From IMG/VR virus record IMGVR_UViG_3300033518_000398, positions 1 through 64,000 of that record: 64,000 nucleotides of DNA, one strand, 5' to 3'. This DNA is from a virus. Taxonomy: Duplodnaviria > Caudoviricetes. The notes below the pieces were generated by a model. That model saw nothing but the letters and a program-made list of their open reading frames with translations. It did no database searches and was not told where the DNA came from. This document shows positions 38,244 to 63,846 of this stretch, piece by piece (positions within the stretch are counted from its first letter, which is position 1; every line of letters begins with the position of its first letter). A program made the position numbers and the translations under genes.

Positions 38244-38318
38244 ATGAAAAATTTAGTGAACATAGTGCCCCAACCGCAACAACATCCACAGGATGGTGAA
38301 TGGGGAAAGTACGCTTAA
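38244..38318 (+). CDS. Attenuator leader peptide 1 (Pro/Gln/His sensor)
   Basis: MKNLVNIVPQPQQHPQDGEWGKYA*. Confidence 0.8.
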   Translation: MKNLVNIVPQPQQHPQDGEWGKYA

Positions 38319-39169: not shown

Positions 39170-39242
39170 TGACCTGTGGTGTAATTGGCAACACGTCTCA
39201 CTTTGACTGAGAAGAGTCCAAGTTCGAGCCTTGGCAGGTCAA
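39170..39242 (+). tRNA. tRNA-Gln(TTG)
   Basis: TCTCA-CT TTG AC-TGAGA; TATATTTG element at 39154-61 immediately upstream. Confidence 0.9.
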
Positions 39243-41295: not shown

Positions 41296-41385
41296 ATGAG
41301 AAATTTACTCGACATATTAATGGTAGCTTTGGAAGCAGTCCTATTATGGGCAGCAGATGAGGATAAAATACGTTCAGTCGGGTAA
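41296..41385 (+). CDS. Attenuator leader peptide 2 (Leu/Asp/Glu/Trp/Met-rich)
   Basis: MRNLLDILMVALEAVLLWAADEDKIRSVG*. Confidence 0.75.
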   Translation: MRNLLDILMVALEAVLLWAADEDKIRSVG

Positions 41386-41416
41386 TACAATATTACACAC
41401 TCCTTTCTTTAATAAG

Positions 41417-41451
41417 AAAAACCCGACTCTCCACAATAAGTCGGGTTTTTT
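41417..41451 (+). terminator. Attenuator 2 terminator
   Basis: AAAAACCCGACT / AGTCGGGTTTTT; 5' arm complementary to AGTCGGGT at 41376-83. Confidence 0.85.
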
Positions 41452-41465
41452 GTTTTAGTGTGTAG

Positions 41466-41477
41466 GTTCTTTGACAT
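41466..41477 (+). promoter_or_regulatory. boxA-like antitermination element
   Basis: GTTCTTTGACAT between the terminator and tRNA-Asp. Confidence 0.65.
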
Positions 41478-41488
41478 GTTGGAAATTT

Positions 41489-41559
41489 GGTCTATTGGGG
41501 TATGGGTATCCTTGGTGGTTGTCGCCCACCAGAAGCGAGTTCGAGTCTCGCATAGACCG
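41489..41559 (+). tRNA. tRNA-Asp(GTC)
   Basis: GGTGG-TT GTC GC-CCACC; G73. Confidence 0.85.
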
Positions 41560-41594
41560 CCTGACTTATTTTCTTTTTCTGTGTATTTATGTAT

Positions 41595-42308
41595 ATGGAA
41601 AAAGAAAATAAGTATTATTTGGTTTATAAAACAACCAATTTGAAAAATGGTAAGTTTTATATTGGTGTTCACGAAACATATAATCTCAATGACGGTTATT
41701 TGGGTTCTGGGAAAGTTCTTAGGAACAGCGTTTATTATCATGGGAAAGAAAATTTTAAAAGGGAAATTCTTGAATTCTGTGAAGATAAAAAAAGCATGTA
41801 TCAAAAAGAAAAGGAATTTGTTACTGAAGAACTGATAATGAATTCTAAATGTATGAATTTAGTTGTTGGTGGAATGGGATTCATTAATGATGAAAAACAT
41901 CGTGAGGTTTCACAATTAGGTGGTAATGCGACTTCATTGAAACTAAAAAATGACCCAGAATTTAGAAAGAGACATCAAAAAATTGTCTCGGAGAATATGA
42001 AAAAAGCGCATCAATTAGGAAAAATTATACCACCTGATTGGACTGGTAAAAAACATAAAGAAGAAACAAAAAGAAAAATCGGAATAAAAAATTCAATCAA
42101 ACAAAGTGGCATTAATAATTCACAATTTGGTACTTGTTGGATAACAAAAAACGGTAATGATAAAAAAATAAAAAAAGAATACCTTCAAGAATATCTTTCT
42201 GAAGGTTGGATTAAAGGTAGATATGCTCGGTTCGAATCCGATATGGGGTACAAAGTATATTCAATTTCACAGTGCTTTGGTGTGGTCATTACCTATTTTT
42301 TCAAGTAA
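41595..42308 (+). CDS. GIY-YIG homing endonuclease with NUMOD3-like motif
   Basis: YLVYKTTNLKNGKFYIGVH, YLGSG, WTGKKHKEETKRKIG; late motif at 41583. Confidence 0.85.
   Translation: MEKENKYYLVYKTTNLKNGKFYIGVHETYNLNDGYLGSGKVLRNSVYYHGKENFKREILEFCEDKKSMYQKEKEFVTEELIMNSKCMNLVVGGMGFINDEKHREVSQLGGNATSLKLKNDPEFRKRHQKIVSENMKKAHQLGKIIPPDWTGKKHKEETKRKIGIKNSIKQSGINNSQFGTCWITKNGNDKKIKKEYLQEYLSEGWIKGRYARFESDMGYKVYSISQCFGVVITYFFK
42225..42251 (+). pseudogene. 3' tRNA fragment (T-arm plus acceptor strand; Glu-like, identity unproven)
   Basis: TCGG-TTCGAAT-CCGA then TATGGGGTAC. Confidence 0.45.
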
Positions 42309-42371
42309 TAATTCATGTCTTTTAAATGATTATTTGAATATTTTTTGTATTTATGATAAACATAACAACCA

Positions 42372-42722
42372 ATGAAAATATTAATTGTTGATGATAATAC
42401 ATTAGTACACTATTTGATAAAAGCCATGATTGAAGCAATGATTGAAGAAAATGGTTTTGAATTGTTTGATGTATATAACGGTGAAGAAGCGGTTGATTTT
42501 GCATTAAATAATGAATTGGACTTGATTTTCATGGACATAATGATGCCAATATTAGATGGTATTGAAGCAACTAAAATAATAAAAAAATTCTCACCCAACA
42601 TACCAATAATATGTATTAGTGCATATCAACAGAATCAAGAGATATCTCGTTTATTTGATGACATAGTTCAAAAACCATTTGTAACTAAGCAAATAATAGG
42701 TAAAATTAAAAAATACGAATAA
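42372..42722 (+). CDS. Stand-alone CheY-like response-regulator receiver domain
   Basis: KILIVDD, DLIFMDIMMP.LDG, PIICISA, KPF. Confidence 0.9.
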   Translation: MKILIVDDNTLVHYLIKAMIEAMIEENGFELFDVYNGEEAVDFALNNELDLIFMDIMMPILDGIEATKIIKKFSPNIPIICISAYQQNQEISRLFDDIVQKPFVTKQIIGKIKKYE

Positions 42723-42751
42723 CATCCAGTATTTATGATAAACCTAAAGTT

Positions 42752-43270
42752 ATGGATTATCATATAATGTTATTTCTGACAATGATTGCAGTATTTGTTT
42801 CATATATTGCTGCAGTATGGATTAAATTTGGCGTACAGCCATCAATAAGTGCAAGTTATGATTGTTGGAAAGGTAATTGGCAATCATTATTCACTCTTTT
42901 CTGTTGGGGATTTGCATTTCCTGCAATGATTATTGGTGTAGAGGTAACACCATTGATGTTTTTCGCAACTGCTGGAATAATGTTCGTTGGTGCTGCATAT
43001 CAAATAAAAAATCCTTGGGTATATAAATATCACATGATATTTGCAGTATCAGGAATAATTTTCAGTCAATTAGCAATATATTTTGGTTATGATTTATTAT
43101 GGTTAAACATTGTGTCTGTTGCGTTAACCGCATTAATATTATTAGCTAAACAATTTCTGGGTTTAAAGAATCACTTCTGGTGGATGGAGTTAGTGTACTT
43201 TGCTGCAATAGTTTATGCTATGGGAACTAAGATTATTCCTCTACTGTATCTAACAACATTTTTATTTTAA
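42752..43270 (+). CDS. Multi-pass membrane protein
   Basis: About five hydrophobic segments; late motif at 42729. Confidence 0.75.
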   Translation: MDYHIMLFLTMIAVFVSYIAAVWIKFGVQPSISASYDCWKGNWQSLFTLFCWGFAFPAMIIGVEVTPLMFFATAGIMFVGAAYQIKNPWVYKYHMIFAVSGIIFSQLAIYFGYDLLWLNIVSVALTALILLAKQFLGLKNHFWWMELVYFAAIVYAMGTKIIPLLYLTTFLF

Positions 43271-43273
43271 TAT

Positions 43274-43344
43274 ACGTCTTTGGTGTAACGGTAGCACGAT
43301 TCTCTCCAAAAGAATTAGTACTTGTTCGAATCGAGTAAGACGTG
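43274..43344 (+). tRNA. tRNA-Trp(CCA)
   Basis: ATTCT-CT CCA AA-AGAAT; G73. Confidence 0.88.
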
Positions 43345-43388
43345 CAATATTAAAAACATGCATTTAAAATTAATCATTTATTTATTAA

Positions 43389-43697
43389 TTATAAAGTAAA
43401 ACCCTTGGTAGATTGCCTTTTACCATTCAATACATGATATGTTGTTGTTTCATCTAATTTATGTTTTTTACAAAAATTTTTAACTGACTTAAATTGATAT
43501 TTAATACCATTTCTATATAGAATATGTTCTTTATTGTTATATTTTATTCTATTTCTTAATTCGGTTAGTGTAAAATCATGTTTTTTAAAAACAGTCCAAT
43601 TTTTAAAAAATGTCATTTTAAGTTTTCTTAACATTAATGACATTAACATCTTATCATTTAAATTATTGTCTTTACAAAATTTGGAAAAATTATCCAC
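43389..43697 (-). CDS. Small NUMOD1/HTH-like protein (endonuclease-associated remnant)
   Basis: FKSVKNFCKKHKL...HVLNGKR; late motif at 43720. Confidence 0.5.
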   Translation of the reverse strand: MDNFSKFCKDNNLNDKMLMSLMLRKLKMTFFKNWTVFKKHDFTLTELRNRIKYNNKEHILYRNGIKYQFKSVKNFCKKHKLDETTTYHVLNGKRQSTKGFTL

Positions 43698-43820
43698 CCC
43701 ATAAAATTTATTCTTAGTTATAAATACGTAAATATTAACAAAAATTAAATAATATATAAAAACTTTGTTTGTTTTTATATATTATTTACATATCTTTGTA
43801 ATTATTAATAAATTCTTTAT

Positions 43821-44558
43821 ATGCTTATAATAAATCATAAGAAAAAGGATTATTATGATGGTGTTGCTGGTACTACTGGCATTGATAAGACCATTGTATA
43901 TCATCGTGAAGTAATTGAACTTGAAGAAGATAAACTACCCAAACAATTTAGAAGAAAAAGTAATTGGAGAAAAGAAGATATTAATCCATTACGTGAGTTG
44001 AGTACATTTAAGTTAAAAAAAGAATTTCATGATGTTTGTGAAGACTATTCATATTTTATAATTGGCTTTTGTGGTAAACTATATATAGGTTGGAAACTTT
44101 ATCGTGAGGAAATATTCCCATACATGGTCGATACTGAAATCACATTTGATTCCGAGTACATGAAATCTATTTTAGAACCAAAATCTTGGTATAATAATCT
44201 CGAAGATAATATTAATTATATTCAGAAGTTTGATGCGATTCAGATTTTCAGAGATTTAAAAACACCAGTTTTTGTATTTGATAATGATTATAGTAGAACA
44301 CAACTTGATACCAAACATTATTCGATTAGAAATTATAATCCGAAATTTTTCGTAAACCCAGTTCTAAAAGAGTATCAATTTTATAAAGTGTTTGAATCAT
44401 TTCAAGCTTTTCAAGAAATTCAGATGTTTCTTGGTGGTGTACTTGGTAGTGGTGAAAAAAACATTGTAGAAGTGGCTGATAAATATAAAATTACCCAGCA
44501 TGGGTTTGATAAATGGAGTTTTAGAAAAATGTCTGAAAATGGAAAAAGAACTACATAA
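43821..44558 (+). CDS. Hypothetical protein
   Basis: 245-aa ORF; promoter TTTG 43768 / TATCTTTG 43791. Confidence 0.75.
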   Translation: MLIINHKKKDYYDGVAGTTGIDKTIVYHREVIELEEDKLPKQFRRKSNWRKEDINPLRELSTFKLKKEFHDVCEDYSYFIIGFCGKLYIGWKLYREEIFPYMVDTEITFDSEYMKSILEPKSWYNNLEDNINYIQKFDAIQIFRDLKTPVFVFDNDYSRTQLDTKHYSIRNYNPKFFVNPVLKEYQFYKVFESFQAFQEIQMFLGGVLGSGEKNIVEVADKYKITQHGFDKWSFRKMSENGKRTT

Positions 44559-44823
44559 TATTTATATAATACCAGCAGTATTTGTTAGATACAGAGAAGA
44601 TGGCAACGTGATTTTAAGATGTTTACAGGGTAAAGAAACTGTTGACAGGGCATTTGAACCCAATTTAATAAAAGGTATTGAAAACCCAAAGTATTTATTG
44701 CTGGGAATCATGGCTGGTGTTGGATACATGCAGTTAAATGTTTGCGATGGTGAAGAGTTTGTGAATTTATTCATAAAAAAATGGAATGTGTTGTATCAGG
44801 ATGTTAATTATAAATTAAAATAG
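44500..44823 (+). CDS. Hypothetical protein (start uncertain)
   Basis: ORF following 43821-44558. Confidence 0.6.
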   Translation: MGLINGVLEKCLKMEKELHNIYIIPAVFVRYREDGNVILRCLQGKETVDRAFEPNLIKGIENPKYLLLGIMAGVGYMQLNVCDGEEFVNLFIKKWNVLYQDVNYKLK

Positions 44824-44918
44824 TGTTGCTAACCACTCTATAGGAGAACGTGACTTACGGACATTGAGTGATTAATGGTTTCAGTATGTAAGAAGCGCAC
44901 ACGATTTCCGCAACATTA
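44821..44918 (+). ncRNA. Candidate structured ncRNA
   Basis: 9-bp closing stem TAGTGTTGC/GCAACATTA; lies before boxA and tmRNA. Confidence 0.4.
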
Positions 44919-44938
44919 TTTTTGTTCATTGATATTAT

Positions 44939-45303
44939 GGGGGCGACTTGGATTTGATTAGATGTCAGATTGGTAAAGTAAGCAAGTCTTAGTTGAATCA
45001 GACTAAGTAAAAAAGGTTCAAAGCAGAAATGCAAACAATTTTTCAGAGGACATGATGTCCTTCTCAACTTCTGTAACAAGAGGTATCACCGTTTTCGAGA
45101 GTGCTGAACTCGAAATGGCTGCTTGAGAACAATAAACGGCAAAAACTTCTGGTGAAGTAAGTTATGAATAAGTTAGTAACGAATCCCGAAGCGAAACTAA
45201 TATTAAACTGTTATATTTTGCTGATTTAGAAAAATCGGATAAACTTGTAGAAAACCTATTAATCACATTTAAGACGAGGGTTCGAATCCCTCCGCTTCCA
45301 CCA
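44939..45303 (+). ncRNA. ssrA: tmRNA
   Basis: 5' GGGGGCGACTTGGATTTGA, G3.U70, 3' GGTTCGAATCCCTCCGCTTCCACCA; tag ORF 45031-45126 ending in MAA*. Confidence 0.92.
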
Positions 45304-45325
45304 ATTTATTTAAAATCAATTAGTT

Positions 45326-45754
45326 ATGAATTCGAAGTTTGAAGAAATGAGTAAGAAATTGCAAGAATTTCTTGACTCAGCAGAAGGTGATGAATATTTT
45401 GAAAAACTGGATAGAAAGAATAAAATTCAGGAAGGTCGTTATAGACGTTTCGAAAAATATCTTGAAACCCATGACTTTGATAAACTAATTTATCGTTTAA
45501 TTCTGGAACACGGTGAACAATGGCGTGAAAAATGTTATCATAATGGCTGTGAGGTTTATCCAAACAATAAACTACAATTTATCATTGACTACGTTTTTGA
45601 AACCTTTGAACCAATTAGTGTATCTCAAATCGAAACTATGTTTAATACCGACATCAGGTTCTTTAGAGGATATTTTTTCAGAATAATGCATGGACAGGGT
45701 TCTGTTTTTGATTTGTATAATGGTGACGATTTTAGGCATTTATTAAGTGCTTGA
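45326..45754 (+). CDS. Hypothetical protein
   Basis: 142-aa ORF. Confidence 0.7.
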   Translation: MNSKFEEMSKKLQEFLDSAEGDEYFEKLDRKNKIQEGRYRRFEKYLETHDFDKLIYRLILEHGEQWREKCYHNGCEVYPNNKLQFIIDYVFETFEPISVSQIETMFNTDIRFFRGYFFRIMHGQGSVFDLYNGDDFRHLLSA

Positions 45755-45757
45755 TTT

Positions 45758-45785
45758 GGCGGGATGGTGAAACTGGTAGACACGC
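45758..45785 (+). pseudogene. 5' fragment of a Leu-type tRNA
   Basis: GGCGGGATGGTGAAACTGGTAGACACGC (acceptor strand plus D-arm) with no further arms. Confidence 0.55.
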
Positions 45786-45831
45786 TGTAATCTTTTTCCT
45801 GAGTGTGTAGTATTTATGAAAAATAAATATT

Positions 45832-46298
45832 ATGCCGAAACAGATTAAAAGTAGAATTAATGATGAATATTTTATCTCAGTATGTAAATCATCAAAGACT
45901 ATGGCGCAAGCAGCAGCCACATTAAAGATACATTTCAATAGTTTTAGAAGACGTGCAATTATTTTAGAATGTTATAAAACAAATCAAAGTGGAAAGGGAA
46001 CGAGGAAAAGACCTTCGAAACTAATACCAATAGAAGATATAATATTTGAAAATAAACACCCTGAATATCAGACATTTAAATTAAAAAAAAATTAATTAAG
46101 GAAGGATATAAAAAAAATGAATGTGAAGAATGTGGACAAAAAGAAGTGTGGAACAATAATAAACTTGAAATGGAATTAGACCATATTGATGGCAATAGAA
46201 CAAATCATTTGTTGACGAATTTAAAAATGTTATGTCCTAATTGTCATAGTCAAACAAAAACATTTTGTGGTAAAAATAAAAATGGGGATGTGTTGTAA
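45832..46298 (+). pseudogene. HNH endonuclease split by a -1 frameshift in an A9 run (46083-46091)
   Basis: Second frame encodes CEECG...LDHIDGNRTNH..NLKMLCPNCHSQT; late motif at 45810. Confidence 0.8.
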
Positions 46299-46369
46299 CT
46301 GGTAGCCAAGACGGACTTAAAATTCGTTGTTCAGAAATGAACGTGTGGGTTCGACTCCCACCATCCCTA
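46284..46369 (+). tRNA. tRNA-Leu(TAA)
   Basis: ACGGA-CT TAA AA-TTCGT; long variable arm; A73. Confidence 0.88.
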
Positions 46370-46408
46370 CAAACACTATCGCTCTTTGACATATAGGAGA
46401 ATTTTATA

Positions 46409-46720
46409 ATGGATATACAATCATTTATTTTAGGAATGTGTGCTGTATTGGTAATTGCGTTAGTGATTGGCAGTGTAGTTGCACTTATTAGGGTGATAAA
46501 ATTGAAAAAACTTGTCGAATTATCAACAAGTACTGCCTTAAGACTCATAGAAGATGCTGGAAATGAAACCATAACTATGATTAATCAATTACGCACTGAA
46601 ATTGATGGTGTACATAGAGAAATCAATGAAGTGCGTAGAGAAATGGATTCGAGATACGATAAATTAAAATCAACGTTTTCTAAGGAAATTGAAAACGCAG
46701 TGAAACATAAAAATAATTAA
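46409..46720 (+). CDS. Membrane-anchored coiled-coil protein
   Basis: N-terminal TM segment followed by heptad-like region. Confidence 0.7.
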   Translation: MDIQSFILGMCAVLVIALVIGSVVALIRVIKLKKLVELSTSTALRLIEDAGNETITMINQLRTEIDGVHREINEVRREMDSRYDKLKSTFSKEIENAVKHKNN

Positions 46721-46764
46721 TATTAAAAGTTGTCAAGGTCGGTAGTGTTTTTTAAATAAAATGT

Positions 46765-47031
46765 ATGAAAGAAATTAAAGCAGCAATACGCAAAGAACTT
46801 CGTAAAGAATGTCGAGAAGAAGCACTAAAAATTCTTATACTCGGTGATGATAAAGACCGTGAGGATTTTCTTAAATATCATAATGAGGATAAGGGTAATA
46901 TTTGTTGTTTGGTTCTGGATTATGCTAAGAAAAAATTAATTGAAGCCAATAAGTGGGAATTTAATGCTGAAGACTGTTTTAATGACCCATTCAAACATTT
47001 TGAAGACGATGATACCATACGGGAAGAATAA
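46765..47031 (+). CDS. Hypothetical protein
   Basis: 88-aa ORF. Confidence 0.6.
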   Translation: MKEIKAAIRKELRKECREEALKILILGDDKDREDFLKYHNEDKGNICCLVLDYAKKKLIEANKWEFNAEDCFNDPFKHFEDDDTIREE

Positions 47032-47188
47032 AAAATTACATAAAAATTACACCGATTGTCATCCTAAAAAATTAGGAAAAGGTTGGGTGAATTGGTGGGA
47101 AGCAGAACTTGGTGGAATTGATAAGGGTAGTGAACGTCAAGAAGCTAAGAAAGAAATTAGAAAAGAACTCGATGAAAAAGTTAACTAA
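47009..47188 (+). CDS. Small basic protein
   Basis: MIPYGKNKKLHKNYTDCHPKKLGKGWVNWWE...SERQEAKKEI. Confidence 0.6.
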   Translation: MIPYGKNKKLHKNYTDCHPKKLGKGWVNWWEAELGGIDKGSERQEAKKEIRKELDEKVN

Positions 47189-47291
47189 AAACGATGATTG
47201 TGGGTGCGGTAGACCACTTAAAATAACTGACCCAAGAAGAAAAAAGGCTGGTATAAAAAAAACCACACCTAAAAGAAATACCCCCAGATGA
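47172..47291 (+). CDS. Small basic peptide
   Basis: MKKLTKNDDCGCGRPLKITDPRRKK; stop lies inside tRNA-Leu(CAA). Confidence 0.45.
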   Translation: MKKLTKNDDCGCGRPLKITDPRRKKAGIKKTTPKRNTPR

Positions 47292-47355
47292 TGTAACTGG
47301 CAAACGTGTTCGGCTCAAACCCGAAATTTTGTGGGTTCGAATCCCACTCTGGGGA
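47282..47355 (+). tRNA. tRNA-Leu(CAA) with short variable loop
   Basis: TTCGG-CT CAA AC-CCGAA; 5-nt variable loop ATTTT. Confidence 0.8.
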
Positions 47356-47433
47356 CATATGGCTCAACTAATATAGGTTTATGGCTCAATTTTGAGCTAT
47401 TTTGAGCTACAAAGAGTATTTATATTTGTGAAC

Positions 47434-47601
47434 ATGAAAGAAAAACTATTAAAAAAAAGAAACGAATTATTACAACGACTTGCAGATTTTATATACGAAA
47501 GACTGAATGCATCTAAAACTGAACAAGAGTTTAGTTTTTGGATGTGGCAGGGTTTAAGTCTGAATTATTGGTGTGTTGAACGTAAAATTTGGCTTAACTA
47601 A
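47434..47601 (+). CDS. Small hypothetical protein
   Basis: MKEKLLKKRNELLQRLADF...; late motif at 47416. Confidence 0.6.
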   Translation: MKEKLLKKRNELLQRLADFIYERLNASKTEQEFSFWMWQGLSLNYWCVERKIWLN

Positions 47602-47603
47602 TT

Positions 47604-47783
47604 ATGGTTAATAGAGAACGTGTAAAACAAATGTTAAGTCACTATAAAAAAAGACTAAAGAAATATGGTCTTAAAGAAAGTGACGGAAAAATGTATGCTT
47701 TCAGAACAACTGGAAGTCCTTGTAGTTGTCCAGCATGTAGTGGTAATAAATATAGTAGAAAACAAAAACATAAAAAGCTATGA
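47604..47783 (+). CDS. Small basic Zn-ribbon-like protein (absent from the ORF track)
   Basis: 59 aa, ...FRTTGSPCSCPACSGNKYSRKQKHKKL*. Confidence 0.6.
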   Translation: MVNRERVKQMLSHYKKRLKKYGLKESDGKMYAFRTTGSPCSCPACSGNKYSRKQKHKKL

Positions 47784-47832
47784 AAGAAAAATTTAAAGTC
47801 TTGTAAATTGCTCTAATGCAATTTCAAGACAG

Positions 47833-48126
47833 ATGACAAATAAAAAAATTGTAGACAAAACCACCAATCGTGGGGAATTCAATCGTGCGTATAAAAGGCA
47901 TCTTGAAAGCAAAGGTAAAATCCGTTGTACTTATTGTCGTTATCATCGTAATGAAAATGGTAAAGGCAGAGGATATTATGGTGGATATGATGATGACAAC
48001 ATCAAATACCCAAACTGGAAATTGGTTTCAAAACAACCAAAACAATGGATGAAAAAACCAATGAAAATCGTTGAACAACCTACACGTTGGTATGGTAGTC
48101 AAATTTATATCGACATCAAATGGTGA
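47833..48126 (+). CDS. Small basic protein
   Basis: RCTYCRYHRNEN...PNWKLVSKQPKQW. Confidence 0.65.
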   Translation: MTNKKIVDKTTNRGEFNRAYKRHLESKGKIRCTYCRYHRNENGKGRGYYGGYDDDNIKYPNWKLVSKQPKQWMKKPMKIVEQPTRWYGSQIYIDIKW

Positions 48127-48137
48127 TGTCGATAAAT

Positions 48138-48210
48138 GGCGGGGTAGCTTAGTTGGTAAAGCACTTGAGTCATAACCAAGAGACCGAGGGTTCGAGTCCC
48201 TCTCCCGCTA
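48138..48210 (+). tRNA. tRNA with CAT anticodon (probably elongator Met)
   Basis: GGCGGGGTAGCTTAG; loop GT CAT AA; Met versus Ile2 not resolvable by eye. Confidence 0.8.
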
Positions 48211-48217
48211 CAAACAA

Positions 48218-53803: not shown

Positions 53804-53893
53804 ATGAGAACATTTGGAACATATTATCTTTATAAATCTTATAAGAAAACTCTTATGAGAATCGGGATTTTTATGTCCAAAACGCAAAGATAA
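53804..53893 (+). CDS. Attenuator leader peptide 3 (Tyr/Lys sensor)
   Basis: MRTFGTYYLYKSYKKTLMRIGIFMSKTQR*. Confidence 0.8.
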   Translation: MRTFGTYYLYKSYKKTLMRIGIFMSKTQR

Positions 53894-53948: not shown

Positions 53949-53988
53949 GTTATATTATTCTTTGAAGATTTGAAAGCGAAATGAAATT

Positions 53989-57666: not shown

Positions 57667-60600
57667 ATGGCACAAAAAACCCTAAAAACCTACACAAAAC
57701 AAGAAGTTGAAAAAGCAACATTAAACTATTTTAAAGGAGATGGATTAGCTACCGATGTATGGATGAAAAAATATTGTTTAAAGGATGAAAACAATTATTA
57801 CGAACTCACTCCTGATGATATGCATAAAAGAATTGCAAGTGAACTTGCAAGAATAGAAGCTAAATATCCAAACCCACTTACCGAAGAACAAATTTTTGAA
57901 ACATTGAAAAATTTTAAGAGAATTGTACCACAAGGAAGTCCGATGTCAGGAATTGGAAATAATTTTCAGGTAGTATCTATTGGTAATTGTTTTGTTATTG
58001 GAAATTATGGTGATGGTGATTCTTATGGTGGAATATTGAATATCGACCAAGAACAGGTTCAATTAATGAAACGCAGGGGTGGCGTTGGACATGATTTATC
58101 ACATATTCGTCCAGCAGGTAGTCCAGTAAAAAATAGTGCAATTAGTAGTACAGGTATCGTACCCTTTATGGAAAGATATTCAAACAGTACCAGAGAGGTT
58201 GCACAAGACGGTAGACGTGGAGCACTTATGCTCAGTGTGTCGATTAAACATCCAGATTCTGAAGCATTTATTGATGCCAAACTTGAATCTGGTAAGGTAA
58301 CAGGTGCTAATGTTTCAGTTAAAATCACCGATGAATTCATGAAAGCAGTAATGAATAATAATATGTTTCAACAGCAATATCCAATAGATAGTGATAACCC
58401 TAAATATGTTAAAAGCATTGACGCTCAAAAACTTTGGAAGAAAATTGTATATAATGCATGGAAATCAGCCGAACCCGGTATCTTGTTTTGGGATAAAATA
58501 ATTGGTGAATCAATACCTTCTTGTTATGGTAAGGAATGGATTGAAAGAAGTACTAATCCATGTGTTAGTGAAGATACATTAGTATTAACACATCATGGTT
58601 ATTATGAAATTAGTGAGTTAGTAGATAAGCCAACATTTGTTTGGAATGGTATGAATTTCTCCGAAGTTACGCCAACAATTACTGGTTATAATCAGAAAAT
58701 GTTAAAAGTTATCTTTAGTGATGGTTCTGAATTGAAATGTACACCATATCATGGATTTTATACTTGGGAAGGTTTTGAACGTGATGGAAAATCAATAAAA
58801 AAGGAAGCTAAAGATTTAATCGTTGGAGATAAACTCGAAAAACATGAATTTCCAACACTTTTTGACCATCAAGTTTTTCATGTCGATAAAACTTTTTATA
58901 CGTTAGGATTTTTTGCTGGTGATGGTTTTGTGAAAAGAGATAGCACAGCACATGTATCGTTATATGGTGCAAAGAAAAATCTTCTTGATAAATTAGATGT
59001 AATTGGTAATGTTTCTGAAGATATTGAAAATGATAAATTAACAATACGTGTTGACTTACCTGTAGATTATTTTGGAATTGATTTACATGAACTAAAAAAA
59101 TATGTTCCTAAACGTCATGATAATAATTCATCGGCAATGATGTCATGGTTGGCAGGTATTATAGATTCTGATGGATGTCGTAATTCAGAAGAAGGTTCAA
59201 TTTCAATATCATCAATAGATAAACAATTCTTAATGGATATTAAGTTACATCTTTTGAACGTAATGGGTGTCAGTGGTAGTGTAATTGATGAAAAAGAAGG
59301 TGGGTTACATGAAATTAAAGGCGTTAAATATGATTGTAATAAATCATATCGTTTAATAATTAGTGCATATAATGTTAAAAAACTTTATGATTTAGGTTTA
59401 CGTACCTATCGTGTTAAAATCGATGATGTTAATCCGAACCGTGATGCAAGTAGATTCATTACTGTGAAATCGATTGAGGAAATAGAAGATGCTGAAAAGG
59501 TTTATTGTTTTACTGAACCAGAAAGAGGTCGTGGATGTTTCAACGGTATTGTTACTGCGAATTGTGGCGAGTTACCACTCCCGCCATATGATAGCTGTAG
59601 ATTACTTGCAATTAATTTATTTGGTTATGTGAGAAATCCGTTTACCAAAGAAGCATATTTTGATATGGAAAGTTTTAAGGGCGATGTGATTATATCTATG
59701 CGATATATGGATGATATTATCGATTTAGAACTCGAAAAAATCGATAAAATATTAGAAAAAATCGAATCTGACCCAGAACCTGAAAATTTAAAAAGTGTAG
59801 AAAAAGAATTGTGGAATAATATTAGAAGAAAAGCTGAGTTAGGTCGTAGAACTGGACTTGGTGTTACAGGTGAAGGTGATATGATTGCTGCAATGGGACT
59901 ACGTTACGGTACTGATGATGCCACCGAATTTAGTGAAGAAGTTCATAAAACATTGAAATTAGAAGCATATCGCTCAAGTGTTATTATGGCTAAAGAACGT
60001 GGTGCATTTCCGATATACGATTGGGATAGAGAAAAATTCAATCCATTTATTCGTAGAATAATGGATGAGGATACTGAATTATATAATGAAATGGTAACTT
60101 TTGGTCGTAGAAACATTGCATTACTTACAATCGCACCGACTGGAACAGTTAGTATTATGACACAAACTACATCTGGAATTGAACCAGCATTCTTACCAGT
60201 ATATATGCGTAGGCGTAAGATTAATCCGCAGGAAAAGGACGTTCGAATTGATTTTATTGATGAAGAAGGTGTTGCTTGGATGGAATATCCAGTATTTCAC
60301 CATAAATTTGAAATGTGGTTAGGAATCAATGGCTACGATGTTGAAGTGGTGAAAACCATGAATAAGGAACAACTGGATGAAATTGTTAAAAAATCCCCAT
60401 TTTATAAAGCAACTTCCAATGACGTTGATTGGGTAAAAAAGGTTGAAATGCAAGGCAGGGTTCAAAGGCATGTTGACCATTCCATAAGCACAACTGTGAA
60501 CGTCCCTAATGATACAACAGAGGAACTTGTTGGTAAAGTATATGAAACGGGTTGGCGTAGTGGTTGTAAGGGTATTACTATTTATCGTGATGGTAGTCGT

Positions 60601-61236
60601 AGTGGTGTGTTGGTTAGTCAAAAAGAAGAAAAGAAAGTAGAAGAACTCCAAGACGTGCATGCACCAAAACGTCCCAAAAGATTAAAAGGTGAAATACATA
60701 GGTTTCAGAACAATCTGGAAAAATGGATAGCTGTTGTTGGTATGAAAGATGGTAGACCATATGAAATCTTTACTGGTGTTAATGCTAATGGTCTTAGTAA
60801 TTTACCAACAAACGTTAAAGACTGTGAAGTCGTTAAAAATATTATCGAAGTCGAAGTTCTTGATGATAACGATAAACCAATTAAAATAAAGAAAAAAAGA
60901 TATGATATTGAATATGTTGATGTTGATGGCATTAAACAAGTACACACTGGTTTAAATCATGCATTCAATCCAGAGTTCTGGAACTATGCCAAGTTAATCT
61001 CTGGTATAATGAGACATGGTATGCCAGTTCTTAAACAATACGAATTAATTGAGTCATTGAATTTTAAAGAAGACTATATTAATACGTGGAAAAATGGTGT
61101 GGCACGTGTAATTAAAAAATATATTAAGGATGGTGTTAAAAGCAAAGGAACGTGTCCTGAATGCGGTGGTACTGATTTTATTTTTCAAGAAGGATGTGTT
61201 AAATGTAGTAGTTGTTCTTGGACGAAATGTGGATAA
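57667..61236 (+). CDS. nrdJ: Class II (B12-dependent) ribonucleotide reductase with intein
   Basis: RRGGVG, RRGALM, AEPGILF, TNP/CGE, TIAPTGT, GITIYRDGSR, C-terminal CPECG..GC..C..C; promoter TATATTTG at 57626. Confidence 0.92.
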   Translation: MAQKTLKTYTKQEVEKATLNYFKGDGLATDVWMKKYCLKDENNYYELTPDDMHKRIASELARIEAKYPNPLTEEQIFETLKNFKRIVPQGSPMSGIGNNFQVVSIGNCFVIGNYGDGDSYGGILNIDQEQVQLMKRRGGVGHDLSHIRPAGSPVKNSAISSTGIVPFMERYSNSTREVAQDGRRGALMLSVSIKHPDSEAFIDAKLESGKVTGANVSVKITDEFMKAVMNNNMFQQQYPIDSDNPKYVKSIDAQKLWKKIVYNAWKSAEPGILFWDKIIGESIPSCYGKEWIERSTNPCVSEDTLVLTHHGYYEISELVDKPTFVWNGMNFSEVTPTITGYNQKMLKVIFSDGSELKCTPYHGFYTWEGFERDGKSIKKEAKDLIVGDKLEKHEFPTLFDHQVFHVDKTFYTLGFFAGDGFVKRDSTAHVSLYGAKKNLLDKLDVIGNVSEDIENDKLTIRVDLPVDYFGIDLHELKKYVPKRHDNNSSAMMSWLAGIIDSDGCRNSEEGSISISSIDKQFLMDIKLHLLNVMGVSGSVIDEKEGGLHEIKGVKYDCNKSYRLIISAYNVKKLYDLGLRTYRVKIDDVNPNRDASRFITVKSIEEIEDAEKVYCFTEPERGRGCFNGIVTANCGELPLPPYDSCRLLAINLFGYVRNPFTKEAYFDMESFKGDVIISMRYMDDIIDLELEKIDKILEKIESDPEPENLKSVEKELWNNIRRKAELGRRTGLGVTGEGDMIAAMGLRYGTDDATEFSEEVHKTLKLEAYRSSVIMAKERGAFPIYDWDREKFNPFIRRIMDEDTELYNEMVTFGRRNIALLTIAPTGTVSIMTQTTSGIEPAFLPVYMRRRKINPQEKDVRIDFIDEEGVAWMEYPVFHHKFEMWLGINGYDVEVVKTMNKEQLDEIVKKSPFYKATSNDVDWVKKVEMQGRVQRHVDHSISTTVNVPNDTTEELVGKVYETGWRSGCKGITIYRDGSRSGVLVSQKEEKKVEELQDVHAPKRPKRLKGEIHRFQNNLEKWIAVVGMKDGRPYEIFTGVNANGLSNLPTNVKDCEVVKNIIEVEVLDDNDKPIKIKKKRYDIEYVDVDGIKQVHTGLNHAFNPEFWNYAKLISGIMRHGMPVLKQYELIESLNFKEDYINTWKNGVARVIKKYIKDGVKSKGTCPECGGTDFIFQEGCVKCSSCSWTKCG
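58561..59562 (+). mobile_element. Intein (334 aa) with LAGLIDADG endonuclease in NrdJ
   Basis: CVSEDTL... to ...IVTAN then Cys+1; LGFFAGDG and LAGIIDSDG motifs. Confidence 0.92.
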
Positions 61237-61556: not shown

Positions 61557-61772
61557 ATGAAAAAGAAATTATTTATATTTTTACTATTATTAACATCTGT
61601 AATATTTACTAGTTGTGCTACTCAAGAATATGCTACAACATATAAAAAACAAAAAAGTCTTATGTTATTGGATAATACTAATTTAAGTGGAAATAATAAG
61701 TATTATCAACAAAAACATACTCGTTATAATAAGAGTAGTTATAACAAACATATAAAAAAATTTAAAAAATAA
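61557..61772 (+). CDS. Small lipoprotein
   Basis: Signal MKKKLFIFLLLLTSVIFTSC; late motif at 61535. Confidence 0.7.
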   Translation: MKKKLFIFLLLLTSVIFTSCATQEYATTYKKQKSLMLLDNTNLSGNNKYYQQKHTRYNKSSYNKHIKKFKK

Positions 61773-61782
61773 TTGAAAATAA

Positions 61783-61813
61783 TTTGGAATTATCAAAACT
61801 TTATTTACCTTTG
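61783..61813 (+). promoter_or_regulatory. Bacteroidota-type promoter for leader 4
   Basis: TTTG 61783-86, 19-nt spacer, TACCTTTG 61806-13. Confidence 0.8.
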
Positions 61814-61865
61814 CAAAGTATTTAGATGAAAGAGATTTCAAATTTAATCAAAACATATTAAAATA

Positions 61866-61994
61866 ATGAAAGCACAGGTATCCAATATTAATATTTCGTC
61901 AACGATTAATAGTCGTAATGGAAATGGTATATTCTGTTCAAGTTTTACAGGCAGAAATATAGCAGATACGGGTTCTGGTTTTCATGAGTCATAA
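61866..61994 (+). CDS. Attenuator leader peptide 4 (Ser/Asn/Ile/Gly/Cys sensor)
   Basis: MKAQVSNINISSTINSRNGNGIFCSSFTGRNIADTGSGFHES*. Confidence 0.8.
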   Translation: MKAQVSNINISSTINSRNGNGIFCSSFTGRNIADTGSGFHES

Positions 61995-62018
61995 ATAACT
62001 CATAAAAATATTAAAAAG

Positions 62019-62048
62019 AACCCGAATTCACAAGATTCGGGTTTTTTT
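62019..62048 (+). terminator. Attenuator 4 terminator
   Basis: AACCCGAA / TTCGGGTT + T-run; AGAACCCG complementary to CGGGTTCT at 61969-76. Confidence 0.85.
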
Positions 62049-62062
62049 GTTCTTTGAAATAT

Positions 62063-62746
62063 TTATAATAAAATTTTGGTGCGGATGATTTCATCGATAA
62101 TTGTGAAATATGTGTATGCCCTATCTATTTTAAAATTAATGAATTTTGATGTGTCTATAATACATAACTCAATTCCCTGTTCTAAACAGGCTTGAAATTT
62201 ACGGTTATCGTTATTTTGAATCTGGTTTAGTTTATCTTCACCATAAATTGGTTCATAATGAAAAACACCATTAAGTTCGAATGCAAGTTTAAGTTCTGGA
62301 ATATAAATATCAAGTTCAGAATTTATAGTAGTTTTATCATTGAAGAAAAAGTCAATGTTTGGATATTTTTTTATTAATTCAATGGCAATCCATTTTTCAA
62401 GTTTTGAAATTCGAGTACCTTTAGTCTTGTGTGTGTTATTATATGTAATAGAACAAGACCTTGAGCAGAAATTTTTTGTGGATTTAGAATTTTTTATTTC
62501 ATAATTCGTTTTAATAATTTCTTTTCCGCAATTACCACACATCACTATGTGTCTTTTAGTTAAAATTTGATATTGATGTGAACAATTTTGTGAACAAAAT
62601 TTTGCCGAATTTCTTTTACAATTAATTGCATACATAATTTGTCTTTTTGTTGTATGAAAAGGGTTACCACAAAATTCGCATTTACATTCAAATAAATCTG
62701 TTACTTTTCCAGATATTAATTTTTCATTTTCAAATAATGGTATCAT
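62063..62746 (-). CDS. Zn-finger + Vsr/DUF559-like endonuclease
   Basis: CEFC, CSQNC, CGNC, CSRSC; ELDIYIPELKLAFELNGVFHY; late motif at 62761. Confidence 0.7.
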   Translation of the reverse strand: MIPLFENEKLISGKVTDLFECKCEFCGNPFHTTKRQIMYAINCKRNSAKFCSQNCSHQYQILTKRHIVMCGNCGKEIIKTNYEIKNSKSTKNFCSRSCSITYNNTHKTKGTRISKLEKWIAIELIKKYPNIDFFFNDKTTINSELDIYIPELKLAFELNGVFHYEPIYGEDKLNQIQNNDNRKFQACLEQGIELCIIDTSKFINFKIDRAYTYFTIIDEIIRTKILL

Positions 62747-62893
62747 ACGTAAATTTTATTATAAATACTTTAAAAATTGAATTTCTATTCAGTTTTTAAA
62801 CTCAAAATAAAATATAACTCTTACTGGTTATAAACATCAAATATAGCCTCTACAGGTTATACCGTAAGACGTTCATTGACATGCTGGTTTTAT

Positions 62894-62974
62894 GAAGGGT
62901 TGCCTGAGTGGTCGAAAGGGACTGTCTGCAAAACAGTTAGGAAACTCACGTGGGTTCAAATCCCACACCCTTCT
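62894..62974 (+). tRNA. tRNA-Cys(GCA) with enlarged variable region
   Basis: ACTGT-CT GCA AA-ACAGT; U73; 12-nt variable region. Confidence 0.85.
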
Positions 62975-62982
62975 CAAACATT

Positions 62983-63100
62983 ATTTAGTAGTCGTATGCT
63001 ATAGGACACTCTGGGCGATTGGACACCAGAGTCAACAGAGATAGACAGACAAAAACGTAATGGGCATGCGTATCGTACAATCCGCAATGGCATGCTAAAT
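62983..63100 (+). ncRNA. Candidate structured ncRNA within the tRNA array
   Basis: Closing stem ATTTAGTA/TGCTAAAT; inner hairpin ACTCTGG/CCAGAGT. Confidence 0.45.
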
Positions 63101-63102
63101 AT

Positions 63103-63183
63103 TGTGACGTGGATGAATGGTTTAGTCACCACGCTGATACCGTGGGTCGCAAGACAACGTGGGTTCGAGTCCCACCGTCACAA
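63103..63183 (+). tRNA. tRNA-Ile(GAT) with long variable arm
   Basis: CCACG-CT GAT AC-CGTGG; variable arm GTC-GCAA-GAC. Confidence 0.85.
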
Positions 63184-63200
63184 CAAAGTGTTGCAACACT

Positions 63201-63289
63201 GAATGATTAGAATTTCGTAGCATAGTGGTAATGCTGCCCGCAAGAAAGGGTGAAGATTGGTTCGAGTCCAATCAAAATTTTAATCATTC
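63201..63289 (+). ncRNA. tRNA-like RNA with a 15-bp acceptor helix and non-canonical anticodon loop
   Basis: GAATGATTAGAATTT/AAATTTTAATCATTC; D-arm GCAT/ATGC; T-arm GATTGG-TTCGAGT-CCAATC. Confidence 0.55.
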
Positions 63290-63295
63290 GTTAAT

Positions 63296-63376
63296 GGATA
63301 GGTACTCAAACTGGTTAAGAGGATAGTCTTGAAAACTATTAGGTCGGTTAATCCCCGATGTGTGAGTTCGAACCTC
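63296..63376 (+). tRNA. tRNA-Ser(TGA)
   Basis: ATAGT-CT TGA AA-ACTAT; long variable arm; G73. Confidence 0.88.
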
Positions 63377-63442
63377 ACTCTATCCGCATTATATTATTCG
63401 ATTATTTAAAATATTTAGAACTATATTTAAATATTTTTTACT

Positions 63443-63514
63443 GCGAGTGTAGCACAACGGCTAGTGCGTCTGGCTTCCACCCAGAGGATGAGGTTTCGAC
63501 TACCTCTACTCGCT
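63443..63514 (+). tRNA. tRNA-Gly(TCC)
   Basis: TCTGG-CT TCC AC-CCAGA; U73. Confidence 0.88.
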
Positions 63515-63600
63515 CAACAATGTCTTCCACGCCTCTAAATTATGCGCATCTGGAAGGCTACTTGTAGAATCCAATCATAGTACTGTGATTGGATTCATAT

Positions 63601-63673
63601 AGTGATGTGGCGCAACGGTCAGCGCAGGACGCTTATATCGTCAAGGTTGTGGGTTCGAATCCCACCTTCGCTA
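63601..63673 (+). tRNA. tRNA-Ile(TAT)
   Basis: GACG-CT TAT AT-CGTC; canonical D and T arms. Confidence 0.85.
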
Positions 63674-63680
63674 CAAATAT

Positions 63681-63767
63681 GACTTCGTTGCTTTAGTTGG
63701 TCGAAAAGTCCAGACTGTTAATCTGGTGAACAATGTTCCATCGCAGGTTCGAATCCTGCCGAAGTCG
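63681..63767 (+). tRNA. tRNA-Asn(GTT) with long variable arm
   Basis: CCAGA-CT GTT AA-TCTGG; variable arm GAAC-AAT-GTTC; G73. Confidence 0.85.
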
Positions 63768-63771
63768 CAAT

Positions 63772-63846
63772 GCACCAGTAGCTCAGGGGTAGAGCGTTTG
63801 TCCGTTAAACAAAGGGTCGGGATTTCGAAATTCTCTTGGTGCGCCA
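63772..63846 (+). tRNA. tRNA-Asn(GTT), second copy, with C33
   Basis: TTTGT-CC GTT AA-ACAAA; encoded CCA. Confidence 0.78.

Follow-up and report, generated by a model that had tools for sequence, protein, structure and literature searches.

A candidate leader-peptide attenuator heading a tRNA gene array in an uncultured phage

We analysed the first 64,000 nucleotides (64 kb; the window) of the IMG/VR virus record IMGVR_UViG_3300033518_000398 (Duplodnaviria, Caudoviricetes). The record is 78,763 bp long and its completeness is estimated at 23%, which together imply a jumbo phage of about 340 kb. The G+C content of the window is 31%, and ARAGORN and Rfam place 20 transfer RNA (tRNA) genes and one transfer-messenger RNA in it; five further tRNAs lie in the rest of the record. 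Towards the end of the window, a short open reading frame (ORF) and an intrinsic terminator precede a tRNA array. A sequence-only reading had described this ORF as the leader of an attenuator that integrates five amino-acid signals. The observation is real and far beyond chance, and positions 61806-62059 probably form a ribosome-mediated (leader-peptide) transcription attenuator heading the array. The features of the locus are the following.

61806-61813, + strand: predicted leader promoter box TAnnTTTG (pattern search)
61866-61994, + strand: leader ORF, with ATG at 61866, 42 codons and TAA at 61992-61994 (direct reading and ORF listing)
61881-61961, + strand: sensor run, codons 6-32 of the leader
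61928-61961, + strand: hairpin inside the ORF, possibly a pause hairpin (minimum free energy folds; RNAalifold retains its core, columns 102-122)
61968-61977, + strand: region 2, the predicted antiterminator 5′ strand, which contains CGGGTTCT (61969-76) and forms a duplex with the terminator 5′ arm
61984-62003, + strand: small hairpin around the stop codon (61992-94), lengthening the antiterminator (folds)
62014-62048, either strand: intrinsic terminator (terminator scan), with AGAACCCG at 62017-24 in its 5′ arm (region 3), followed by a U tract
62049-62059, + strand: boxA-like element 1, GTTCTTTGAAA, matching 10 of the 11 positions of the consensus GYTCTTTAANA
62056-62808, − strand: inserted cassette with a 227-codon HNH/homing-endonuclease-like gene (ORF 62063-62746; PHROGs, Pfam and synteny)
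62842-62887, + strand: covarying hairpin (62842-62861) and boxA-like element 2 (62871-62887), 7 nucleotides before tRNA-Cys
62894-63846, + strand: tRNA array (ARAGORN; Rfam tRNA for 7 of 8 genes), comprising Cys(GCA) at 62894, Ile(GAT) at 63103, an odd tRNA-like gene at 63210, Ser(TGA) at 63296, Gly(TCC) at 63443, Ile(TAT) at 63601 and Asn(GTT) at 63681 and 63772, all on the + strand

The leader at 61866-61994 belongs to the last of four sibling units in the 78.8-kb fragment (unit 4). The same TAnnTTTG box and flanks stand before all four leader units and before the ribonucleotide reductase gene, and a pattern search found such boxes upstream of genes across the window. We take this box to be a Bacteroidota promoter type; together with the boxA sequence described below, it suggests Bacteroidota as the host phylum. 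Transcription of the leader would start near 61820.

A blastn search against the deposited phage collection matched single tRNAs only and returned no close relative. Relatives were taken from 80 loci of uncultured phages, found by searching with the C-terminal extein of the ribonucleotide reductase whose gene lies nearby, and from three complete related genomes (G001, G002 and G003), whose tRNA regions were fetched as L084-L090. The definition of a unit relied on structure only: a unit was the first intrinsic terminator met upstream of an array, together with the ORF ending just before that terminator. By this definition, nearly every array among the fetched loci has an attenuator-like unit. 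Homologs of the unit 4 leader were found in about 20 distinct relatives, in which leader and terminator lie 19-46 nucleotides before the first tRNA of an array with the same isotypes; the promoter box and the short ORF are both kept in 19 homologs.

Direct reading of the leader gave eight Ser, six Asn, five Ile, five Gly and one Cys, a total of 25 residues, and ARAGORN identified the downstream tRNAs as Cys, Ile, Ser, Gly, Ile, Asn and Asn. Both Ile codons are used, ATT three times and ATA twice. On these points the sequence-only reading was correct. The background for composition tests was the proteome of this phage, represented by 40 long ORFs. Residues cognate to the Cys, Ile, Ser, Gly and Asn tRNAs make up 25 of 41 leader residues, against a background of 0.28 (binomial p=1.4e-5), and the count rises to 30 of 41 once the downstream Thr and Arg tRNAs are included. 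Codons 6-32 form a run of 27 consecutive residues that all belong to the set {C,F,G,I,N,R,S,T}, for which P is about 1e-9 (background 0.42). Relatives with fuller arrays have 33 of 38 (L011), 34 of 41 (L007) and 37 of 41 (G002) cognate residues, with p values from 1e-8 to 1e-9, the latter for G002. When 20 homologs of this leader were pooled, all eight amino acids of the set were enriched and all 12 others depleted, the in-set fraction being 79% as against 42%.

At variable positions of the leader, Ile and Thr replace one another, or Gly is exchanged with Ser, Thr or Phe, and Val, Leu, Lys and Tyr are seldom seen. Substitutions therefore remain inside the tRNA set, with no regard to the chemistry of the side chain. 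The earlier view of the leader as responsive to several amino acids at once is supported, but five is too few: the family gives a wider set of C, F, G, I, N, R, S and T, and this accounts for the Thr, Phe and Arg residues that the original count had left aside. Thr, Phe and Arg tRNAs are present in the corresponding array of relatives. In the tRNA gene listing of the 78.8-kb record, Thr(GGT) and Phe tRNAs are absent; a Thr tRNA and four Arg tRNAs lie 2.2 kb further along the record, beyond the window, and no leader unit of their own was found for them.

Several features are consistent with translation of the leader ORF. The compositional bias is specific to the reading frame, with an in-set fraction of 0.77 in frame +1 and of 0.33 and 0.47 in the other two forward frames, each of which carries about six stops. 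The ATG is invariant in 19 of 19 homologs, and in the same number of sequences the insertions and deletions within the first 32 codons are all multiples of three. Codons 11, 17 and 19 retain Ser, Arg and Gly while their third base varies freely.

The proposed antiterminator rests on complementarity between the end of the ORF and the terminator. As originally described, CGGGTTCT (61969-76) and AGAACCCG (62017-24) are fully complementary, and ATGAGT (61984-89) pairs with ACTCAT (61998-62003) as a hairpin around the stop codon; relative L004 has a different sequence at the site of this hairpin and still forms it. The duplex between region 2 and the terminator 5′ arm has an energy of -14.2 kcal/mol (z=-3.5 against 200 dinucleotide shuffles), and the terminator itself a fold energy of about -14.6 kcal/mol. 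The terminator is bidirectional: the scan gave 15 pairs for the + strand and a site of 9 pairs for the − strand, where it also ends the endonuclease gene.

RNAalifold on a MAFFT alignment missed the terminator because its arms were misaligned between sequences; it was replaced by per-sequence duplex energies, shuffles and a comparison of own with foreign terminator arms. The antiterminator duplex was stronger than dinucleotide shuffles in 46 of 54 distinct units (median z -3.3), and region 2 lay 6-28 nucleotides before the stop codon in every one of the 54. Pairing with a unit's own terminator arm was better than with foreign arms by a mean of 3.2 kcal/mol (Wilcoxon 5e-8). Pairing was also kept through changes of sequence, GTGTCGGG with CCCGACAC in L007, CGAGTCTTT with AAAGACTCG in L033, and GAATGGGG with CCCCATTC in unit 1. 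The hairpin within the ORF at 61928-61961 showed little covariation, and its role is uncertain.

Ribosome footprints were simulated by folding the nascent RNA, before the terminator 3′ arm is made, with a mask from -15 to +12 at each codon. Unit 4 formed its antiterminator, with 8-9 pairs, when no ribosome was present or when the A site lay at any of codons 1-31; pairing was abolished for an A site at codons 33-41, directly after codon 32, the last of the sensor run.

All four sibling units of the record share one cassette, consisting of a promoter box, a short ORF, an 8-nucleotide copy of the terminator 3′ arm in the 3′ part of the ORF, and the terminator. The other three are given below, with the boxA-like elements that follow the terminators of units 2 and 3.

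38244-38318: unit 1 leader ORF, before Pro-His-Pro-His tRNAs, with Gln further on
41296-41385: unit 2 leader ORF, before Asp, with Trp, Leu, Leu and Met further on
41466-41482: boxA-like element of unit 2
53804-53893: unit 3 leader ORF, before Tyr-Lys
53957-53967: boxA-like element of unit 3

The gene order of Tyr/Lys array, reductase and Thr/Cys/Ile/Ser/Asn/Phe/Gly array is kept in many relatives. In many Tyr/Lys units only 2-16 nucleotides separate the end of the terminator from the tRNA, which leaves no room for a separate promoter. The complete genomes have four units, whose arrays serve {P,H,Q}, {D,E,V,L,A,W,M}, {K,Y} and {C,F,G,I,N,R,S,T}. In all three, the leaders share out the 20 amino acids in the way that the arrays do, and in G001 the four sets partition all 20 amino acids exactly. 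When leaders were matched to arrays, conservatively using the longest ORFs, the true pairing was the best of 24 possible in G001, in G003 and in the record analysed here, and the best of six in G002. Automatically flagged "units" at 22135, 30312, 36366 and 71465 have no tRNAs behind them and were discarded as false positives.

Some further observations concern the sibling arrays. In the region 41296-48211 of the window, leader 2 favours Leu, Ala, Asp, Val, Glu, Met and Trp, and its array in the complete relatives consists of exactly Asp, Glu, Val, Leu, Ala, Trp and Met tRNAs. The array in the window is without Glu, Val and Ala tRNAs and is split over 7 kb by inserted genes, a GIY-YIG-like ORF (41589-42308) and, near 45830-46280, an HNH-like one. 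Directly upstream of the latter, positions 45755-45800 resemble the 5′ half of a long-arm (Leu/Ser-type) tRNA, with no tRNA match in Rfam; a mobile element may have broken up a tRNA gene here. L006 (943-1268) has, in the gap from the Tyr/Lys attenuator to its array, a conserved RNA of about 220 nucleotides, with similar elements in L031, L033, L034, L036 and L040; it is followed in L006 by an 84-nucleotide tRNA (1166-1249, Rfam 42 bits) that ARAGORN missed. The start of this element is also present after unit 3 of the window (53968-53988). The tRNA region of each of G001, G002 and G003 ends with a tRNA with a CTA anticodon (amber suppressor), which suggests that TAG is reassigned in part of the phage genes.

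Sequences like GTTCTTTGA come after the terminator in units 2, 3 and 4 and in most homologs. The copy at 62049-62059 was compared with the published boxA consensus, GYTCTTTAANA (PMC5725501). The motif lies at a set distance from the tRNAs, 22-28 nucleotides from tRNA-Cys and 10-15 nucleotides from tRNA-Thr, and its two copies in the window flank the inserted cassette. A 17-mer variant, present in relatives and in unit 2, is found unchanged in many genomes of Bacteroidota. In five of eight Bacteroidota loci examined it is located in a ribosomal RNA (rRNA) operon, past the spacer tRNAs and 45-100 nucleotides before 23S rRNA; the other three (L091, L136 and L170) have no rRNA gene nearby. The 17-mer at 62871-62887 of the window differs from the Bacteroidota pre-23S sequence by one base. 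An assignment as a pre-16S element was rejected, since no 16S 5′ end was found downstream and Rfam places the motif before 23S.

The hairpin at 62842-62861, nine nucleotides upstream of boxA-like element 2, differs in sequence in L004, L012, L019, L027, L028 and L035 with pairing kept, and the arrangement resembles the boxB-boxA of rrn leaders. When the motif GTTCwTTGA was considered as a promoter or processing site, judged by eye against sigma-70, sigma-54 and the Bacteroidota -7 box, none fitted. The consensus match and the identity to the rRNA-operon spacer element instead point to an RNA signal rather than a promoter. We consider the post-terminator motif to be a putative rrn-type boxA, which is predicted to recruit Nus factors. 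As a boxA is active only as RNA, its position between terminator and tRNAs argues for transcripts that pass through the terminator from the leader promoter. It would also make polymerase resistant to Rho over the untranslated array, which would be relevant to the long spacer in this genome. No canonical promoter and no terminator was found on the + strand in 62050-62893; the motif near 62871 falls where, according to the sequence-only reading, an independent promoter would have spoken against control by the leader.

The sequence-only reading had left out the minus-strand gene between terminator and array. Its product matches PHROG 559 (E=5e-11) as well as PHROGs 1271, 3339 and 9084, families annotated as HNH or homing endonuclease. 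It has Cys-rich zinc fingers (Pfam zf-FCS), and Pfam and PDB searches gave little beyond the zinc finger. By synteny with L004, the nearest relative and 83% identical across the leader, the cassette at 62056-62808 stands exactly in place of a tRNA-Thr(GGT). As a result of this insertion, 848 nucleotides separate terminator and array, compared with 19-46 in relatives. L020 (12081-12339) carries a decayed remnant of the same cassette beside an intact leader. Within the array, the gene at 63210-63281 has an 8-nucleotide anticodon loop with an anticodon given by ARAGORN as 'aaga', and it scores too low for the tRNA threshold of Rfam. Its homolog in L011 is called Cys(ACA) by ARAGORN, similar odd genes occur at the same place in relatives, and it could be a frameshift-type or degenerate tRNA.

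Outside these regions, the ribonucleotide reductase gene at 57667-61236 of the window has an in-frame, intein-like insertion in its active-site NPCGE motif (about residues 300-640). At least seven proteins encoded within 2137-41184 share an N-terminal motif, ..SKQRLFE.M..L.., with unrelated bodies.

Taken at face value, these elements suggest the following sequence of events. Host RNA polymerase would start at the TAnnTTTG promoter and transcribe the 42-codon ORF, in which codons 6-32 would sample only amino acids whose tRNAs the array supplies. If a cognate charged tRNA were scarce, the ribosome would slow anywhere within these codons and leave 61968-77 free to pair with the emerging terminator 5′ arm, thereby blocking the terminator. 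Polymerase would then read on, transcribe boxA, which would recruit host Nus antitermination factors, and enter the untranslated tRNA genes. With fast decoding, the ribosome would be on or just past 61968-77 as the arm emerges, the terminator would form and transcription would stop. New tRNAs would quicken decoding of the leader and so close a negative feedback loop. In this genome, read-through would have to cross 848 nucleotides, antisense to the endonuclease gene, to arrive at the array.

Unit 4 is very probably a true member of a conserved attenuator family, and the family likely works as described. That this particular copy still gates its array is a weaker claim, to which we give somewhat better than even chances; the coupling of leader to array in the window is plausible but, given the cassette, unproven.

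A number of points weigh against attenuation as outlined above. The sequence-only reading had a ribosome at the stop codon covering 61969-76 and so allowing termination. This was not borne out: the footprint of such a ribosome is 61977-62004, which takes in the inner hairpin but only the last base of CGGGTTCT. The folding with footprints gave loss of the antiterminator for codons 33-41, but with the ribosome on the stop (codons 42-43) the antiterminator re-formed in a model without sterics. As region 2 is not covered at the stop codon, termination must rest on timing or steric hindrance. A ribosome on the stop would probably fill most of the 40-nucleotide loop and so hinder the antiterminator both sterically and kinetically. 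Unit 1 has a clear 1:2 anti-antiterminator pairing and forms only 0.5 antiterminator pairs without a ribosome. Unit 4 has conserved internal hairpins, none of which sequesters region 2 in the nascent transcript; without a clear anti-antiterminator, it would be read through by default if untranslated. Transcription-translation coupling in the host is assumed. Sequence alone leaves room for a non-canonical or phage-specific promoter near the boxA elements. Finally, a TAnnTTTG box at 62845 is a possible minus-strand promoter of the cassette gene; with this convergent gene and the 848-nucleotide spacer in between, leader and array could lose their coupling through collision, antisense effects or Rho.

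The last of these points leads to the rival explanation that survives best, namely that the family is real but this copy is a relic, its array at 62894 having been uncoupled since the endonuclease insertion and being expressed otherwise or weakly. Besides the spacer, the convergent gene and the minus-strand box, the loss of the first tRNA, Thr-GGT, speaks for it. Nevertheless, nothing in the unit is broken: its promoter, ORF, sensor run, antiterminator and terminator are all intact, as are the two boxA copies, with 83% identity to L004; L020 has kept its leader despite decay of the cassette; and the spacer contains no + strand terminator or canonical promoter. We regard a relic as unlikely, though with an appreciable chance.

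It is also conceivable that the leader senses decoding but has an output other than read-through of an intrinsic terminator, such as Rho access, RNA processing, stability or the timing of early expression. Default antitermination of unit 4 without a ribosome, the ambiguous behaviour at the stop codon and the boxA elements, which hint at Rho as a concern, would all fit such an output. A strong conserved terminator and a complementary strand of 8-10 nucleotides that covary in 46 of 54 units are, on the other hand, the signature of a terminator/antiterminator switch, and we consider another output improbable.

Alternatively, the ORF could be a stand-alone small-protein gene, equipped with a promoter and terminator of its own, and the array could be transcribed from its own adjacent promoter, for example the motif near 62871, their proximity being mere gene order. 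The set distances of the boxA motif from tRNA-Cys and tRNA-Thr would suit a promoter, the array is remote from the terminator in the window, and tRNA-Gln at 39170 does possess a canonical promoter. However, the motif matches boxA and is identical to the Bacteroidota rRNA-operon spacer element, it precedes no protein gene in the window, and the narrow terminator-tRNA gaps of sibling units would not accommodate a promoter. Such an arrangement would also leave unexplained the covariation of the antiterminator, the frame-specific match of four leaders and the substitutions within the set, and we hold it to be very improbable.

Chance composition and complementarity in an AT-rich intergenic ORF, which could be argued from the abundance of Asn, Ile and Ser in AT-rich genomes and from the choice of the amino-acid set after the tRNAs had been seen, is effectively refuted by p values of 1e-5 to 1e-9 per leader in units defined by structure only, by the correct pairing out of 24 in three genomes, by frame specificity and by covariation.

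Leader-peptide attenuators that respond to more than one amino acid are known in enterobacteria, such as those of ilvGMEDA (Ile/Leu/Val) and thr (Thr/Ile), beside the trp, his, leu and pheA leaders. The phage unit is like these in having a promoter, a short ORF for several amino acids and an antiterminator that overlaps the terminator 5′ arm, with the position of the ribosome predicted to decide between the two structures. It is unlike them in that its predicted targets are tRNAs and not biosynthetic enzymes, so that the loop would sense and correct decoding capacity rather than amino-acid supply. It also differs in the number of amino acids, up to eight in a run of 27 codons and all 20 over four units, in the boxA after the terminator, in its phage setting and in its Bacteroidota-type promoters. 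No Rfam leader family was matched at gathering level; the best hit, Thr_leader, scored 29.4 bits against a cut-off of 55 and covered the terminator only.

Closest in logic is the pheST attenuator of E. coli, in which the pheM leader peptide controls phenylalanyl-tRNA synthetase. There, attenuation acts on part of the translation machinery and answers to how much charged tRNA is present, as is proposed here, but the target is one synthetase for one amino acid on a bacterial chromosome, whereas the phage units head tRNA arrays for many amino acids. T-box riboswitches are similar in that they read tRNA status and, ahead of genes connected with translation, set whether a terminator or an antiterminator forms. 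They do so by direct binding of uncharged tRNA and require no translation, while the signal here would be an in-frame ORF with signs of translation, and no T-box match was found in Rfam searches of the whole window at gathering level or of 61750-62900 at E up to 1.

The rrn operons carry boxB-boxA-boxC antitermination signals, to which NusB/NusE bind. The boxA of the phage matches the rrn type but sits behind an attenuator and ahead of phage tRNA arrays. Free-standing homing endonucleases are known from phage tRNA regions, for example segB of T4; unlike in such cases, the cassette here has replaced a tRNA gene between a predicted switch and its target. The trn operon of Anabaena PCC 7120 is a stress-induced tRNA array, controlled by the repressor TrcR on direct repeats in its promoter (PMC8421152, PMC10272220). 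Like the arrays proposed here, it is an accessory array that is silent until translation is impaired; the 2021 paper on it makes no mention of attenuation, a leader peptide or a terminator. It was the only regulated accessory tRNA array that we found in the literature, and full-text literature searches turned up no description of tRNA genes under leader-peptide attenuation.

Phage tRNA genes are usually seen as fixed supplements to codon usage or as decoys against tRNA-cleaving defences, and we know of little on how their expression is controlled. If the present interpretation is true, leader codons that list the tRNAs behind them would be a direct, self-correcting sensor of tRNA supply, and the classical mechanism of trp, his and ilv would extend to a new class of targets, to phages and to Bacteroidota. 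Such a leader predicts which tRNAs share a transcription unit, and also which tRNAs a lineage has lost, as with the Thr, Phe and Arg codons that match tRNAs in the array of relatives. The compact modular design could serve as a synthetic reporter of codon-specific decoding speed. Taken together, the four leaders might be a complete meter of decoding capacity, in which the 20 amino acids are divided into four groups and each leader gates the array that supplies its group by way of an attenuator and an rRNA-type boxA; we put this reading a little short of an even chance. If it is true, the phage would detect the loss of any host tRNA, whether it came about by codon-usage mismatch, by shut-off of the host or by anticodon-nuclease defences, and would supply just the group concerned on demand, its own tRNAs closing the loop, and the present copy would show such a circuit tolerating a mobile endonuclease gene within it.

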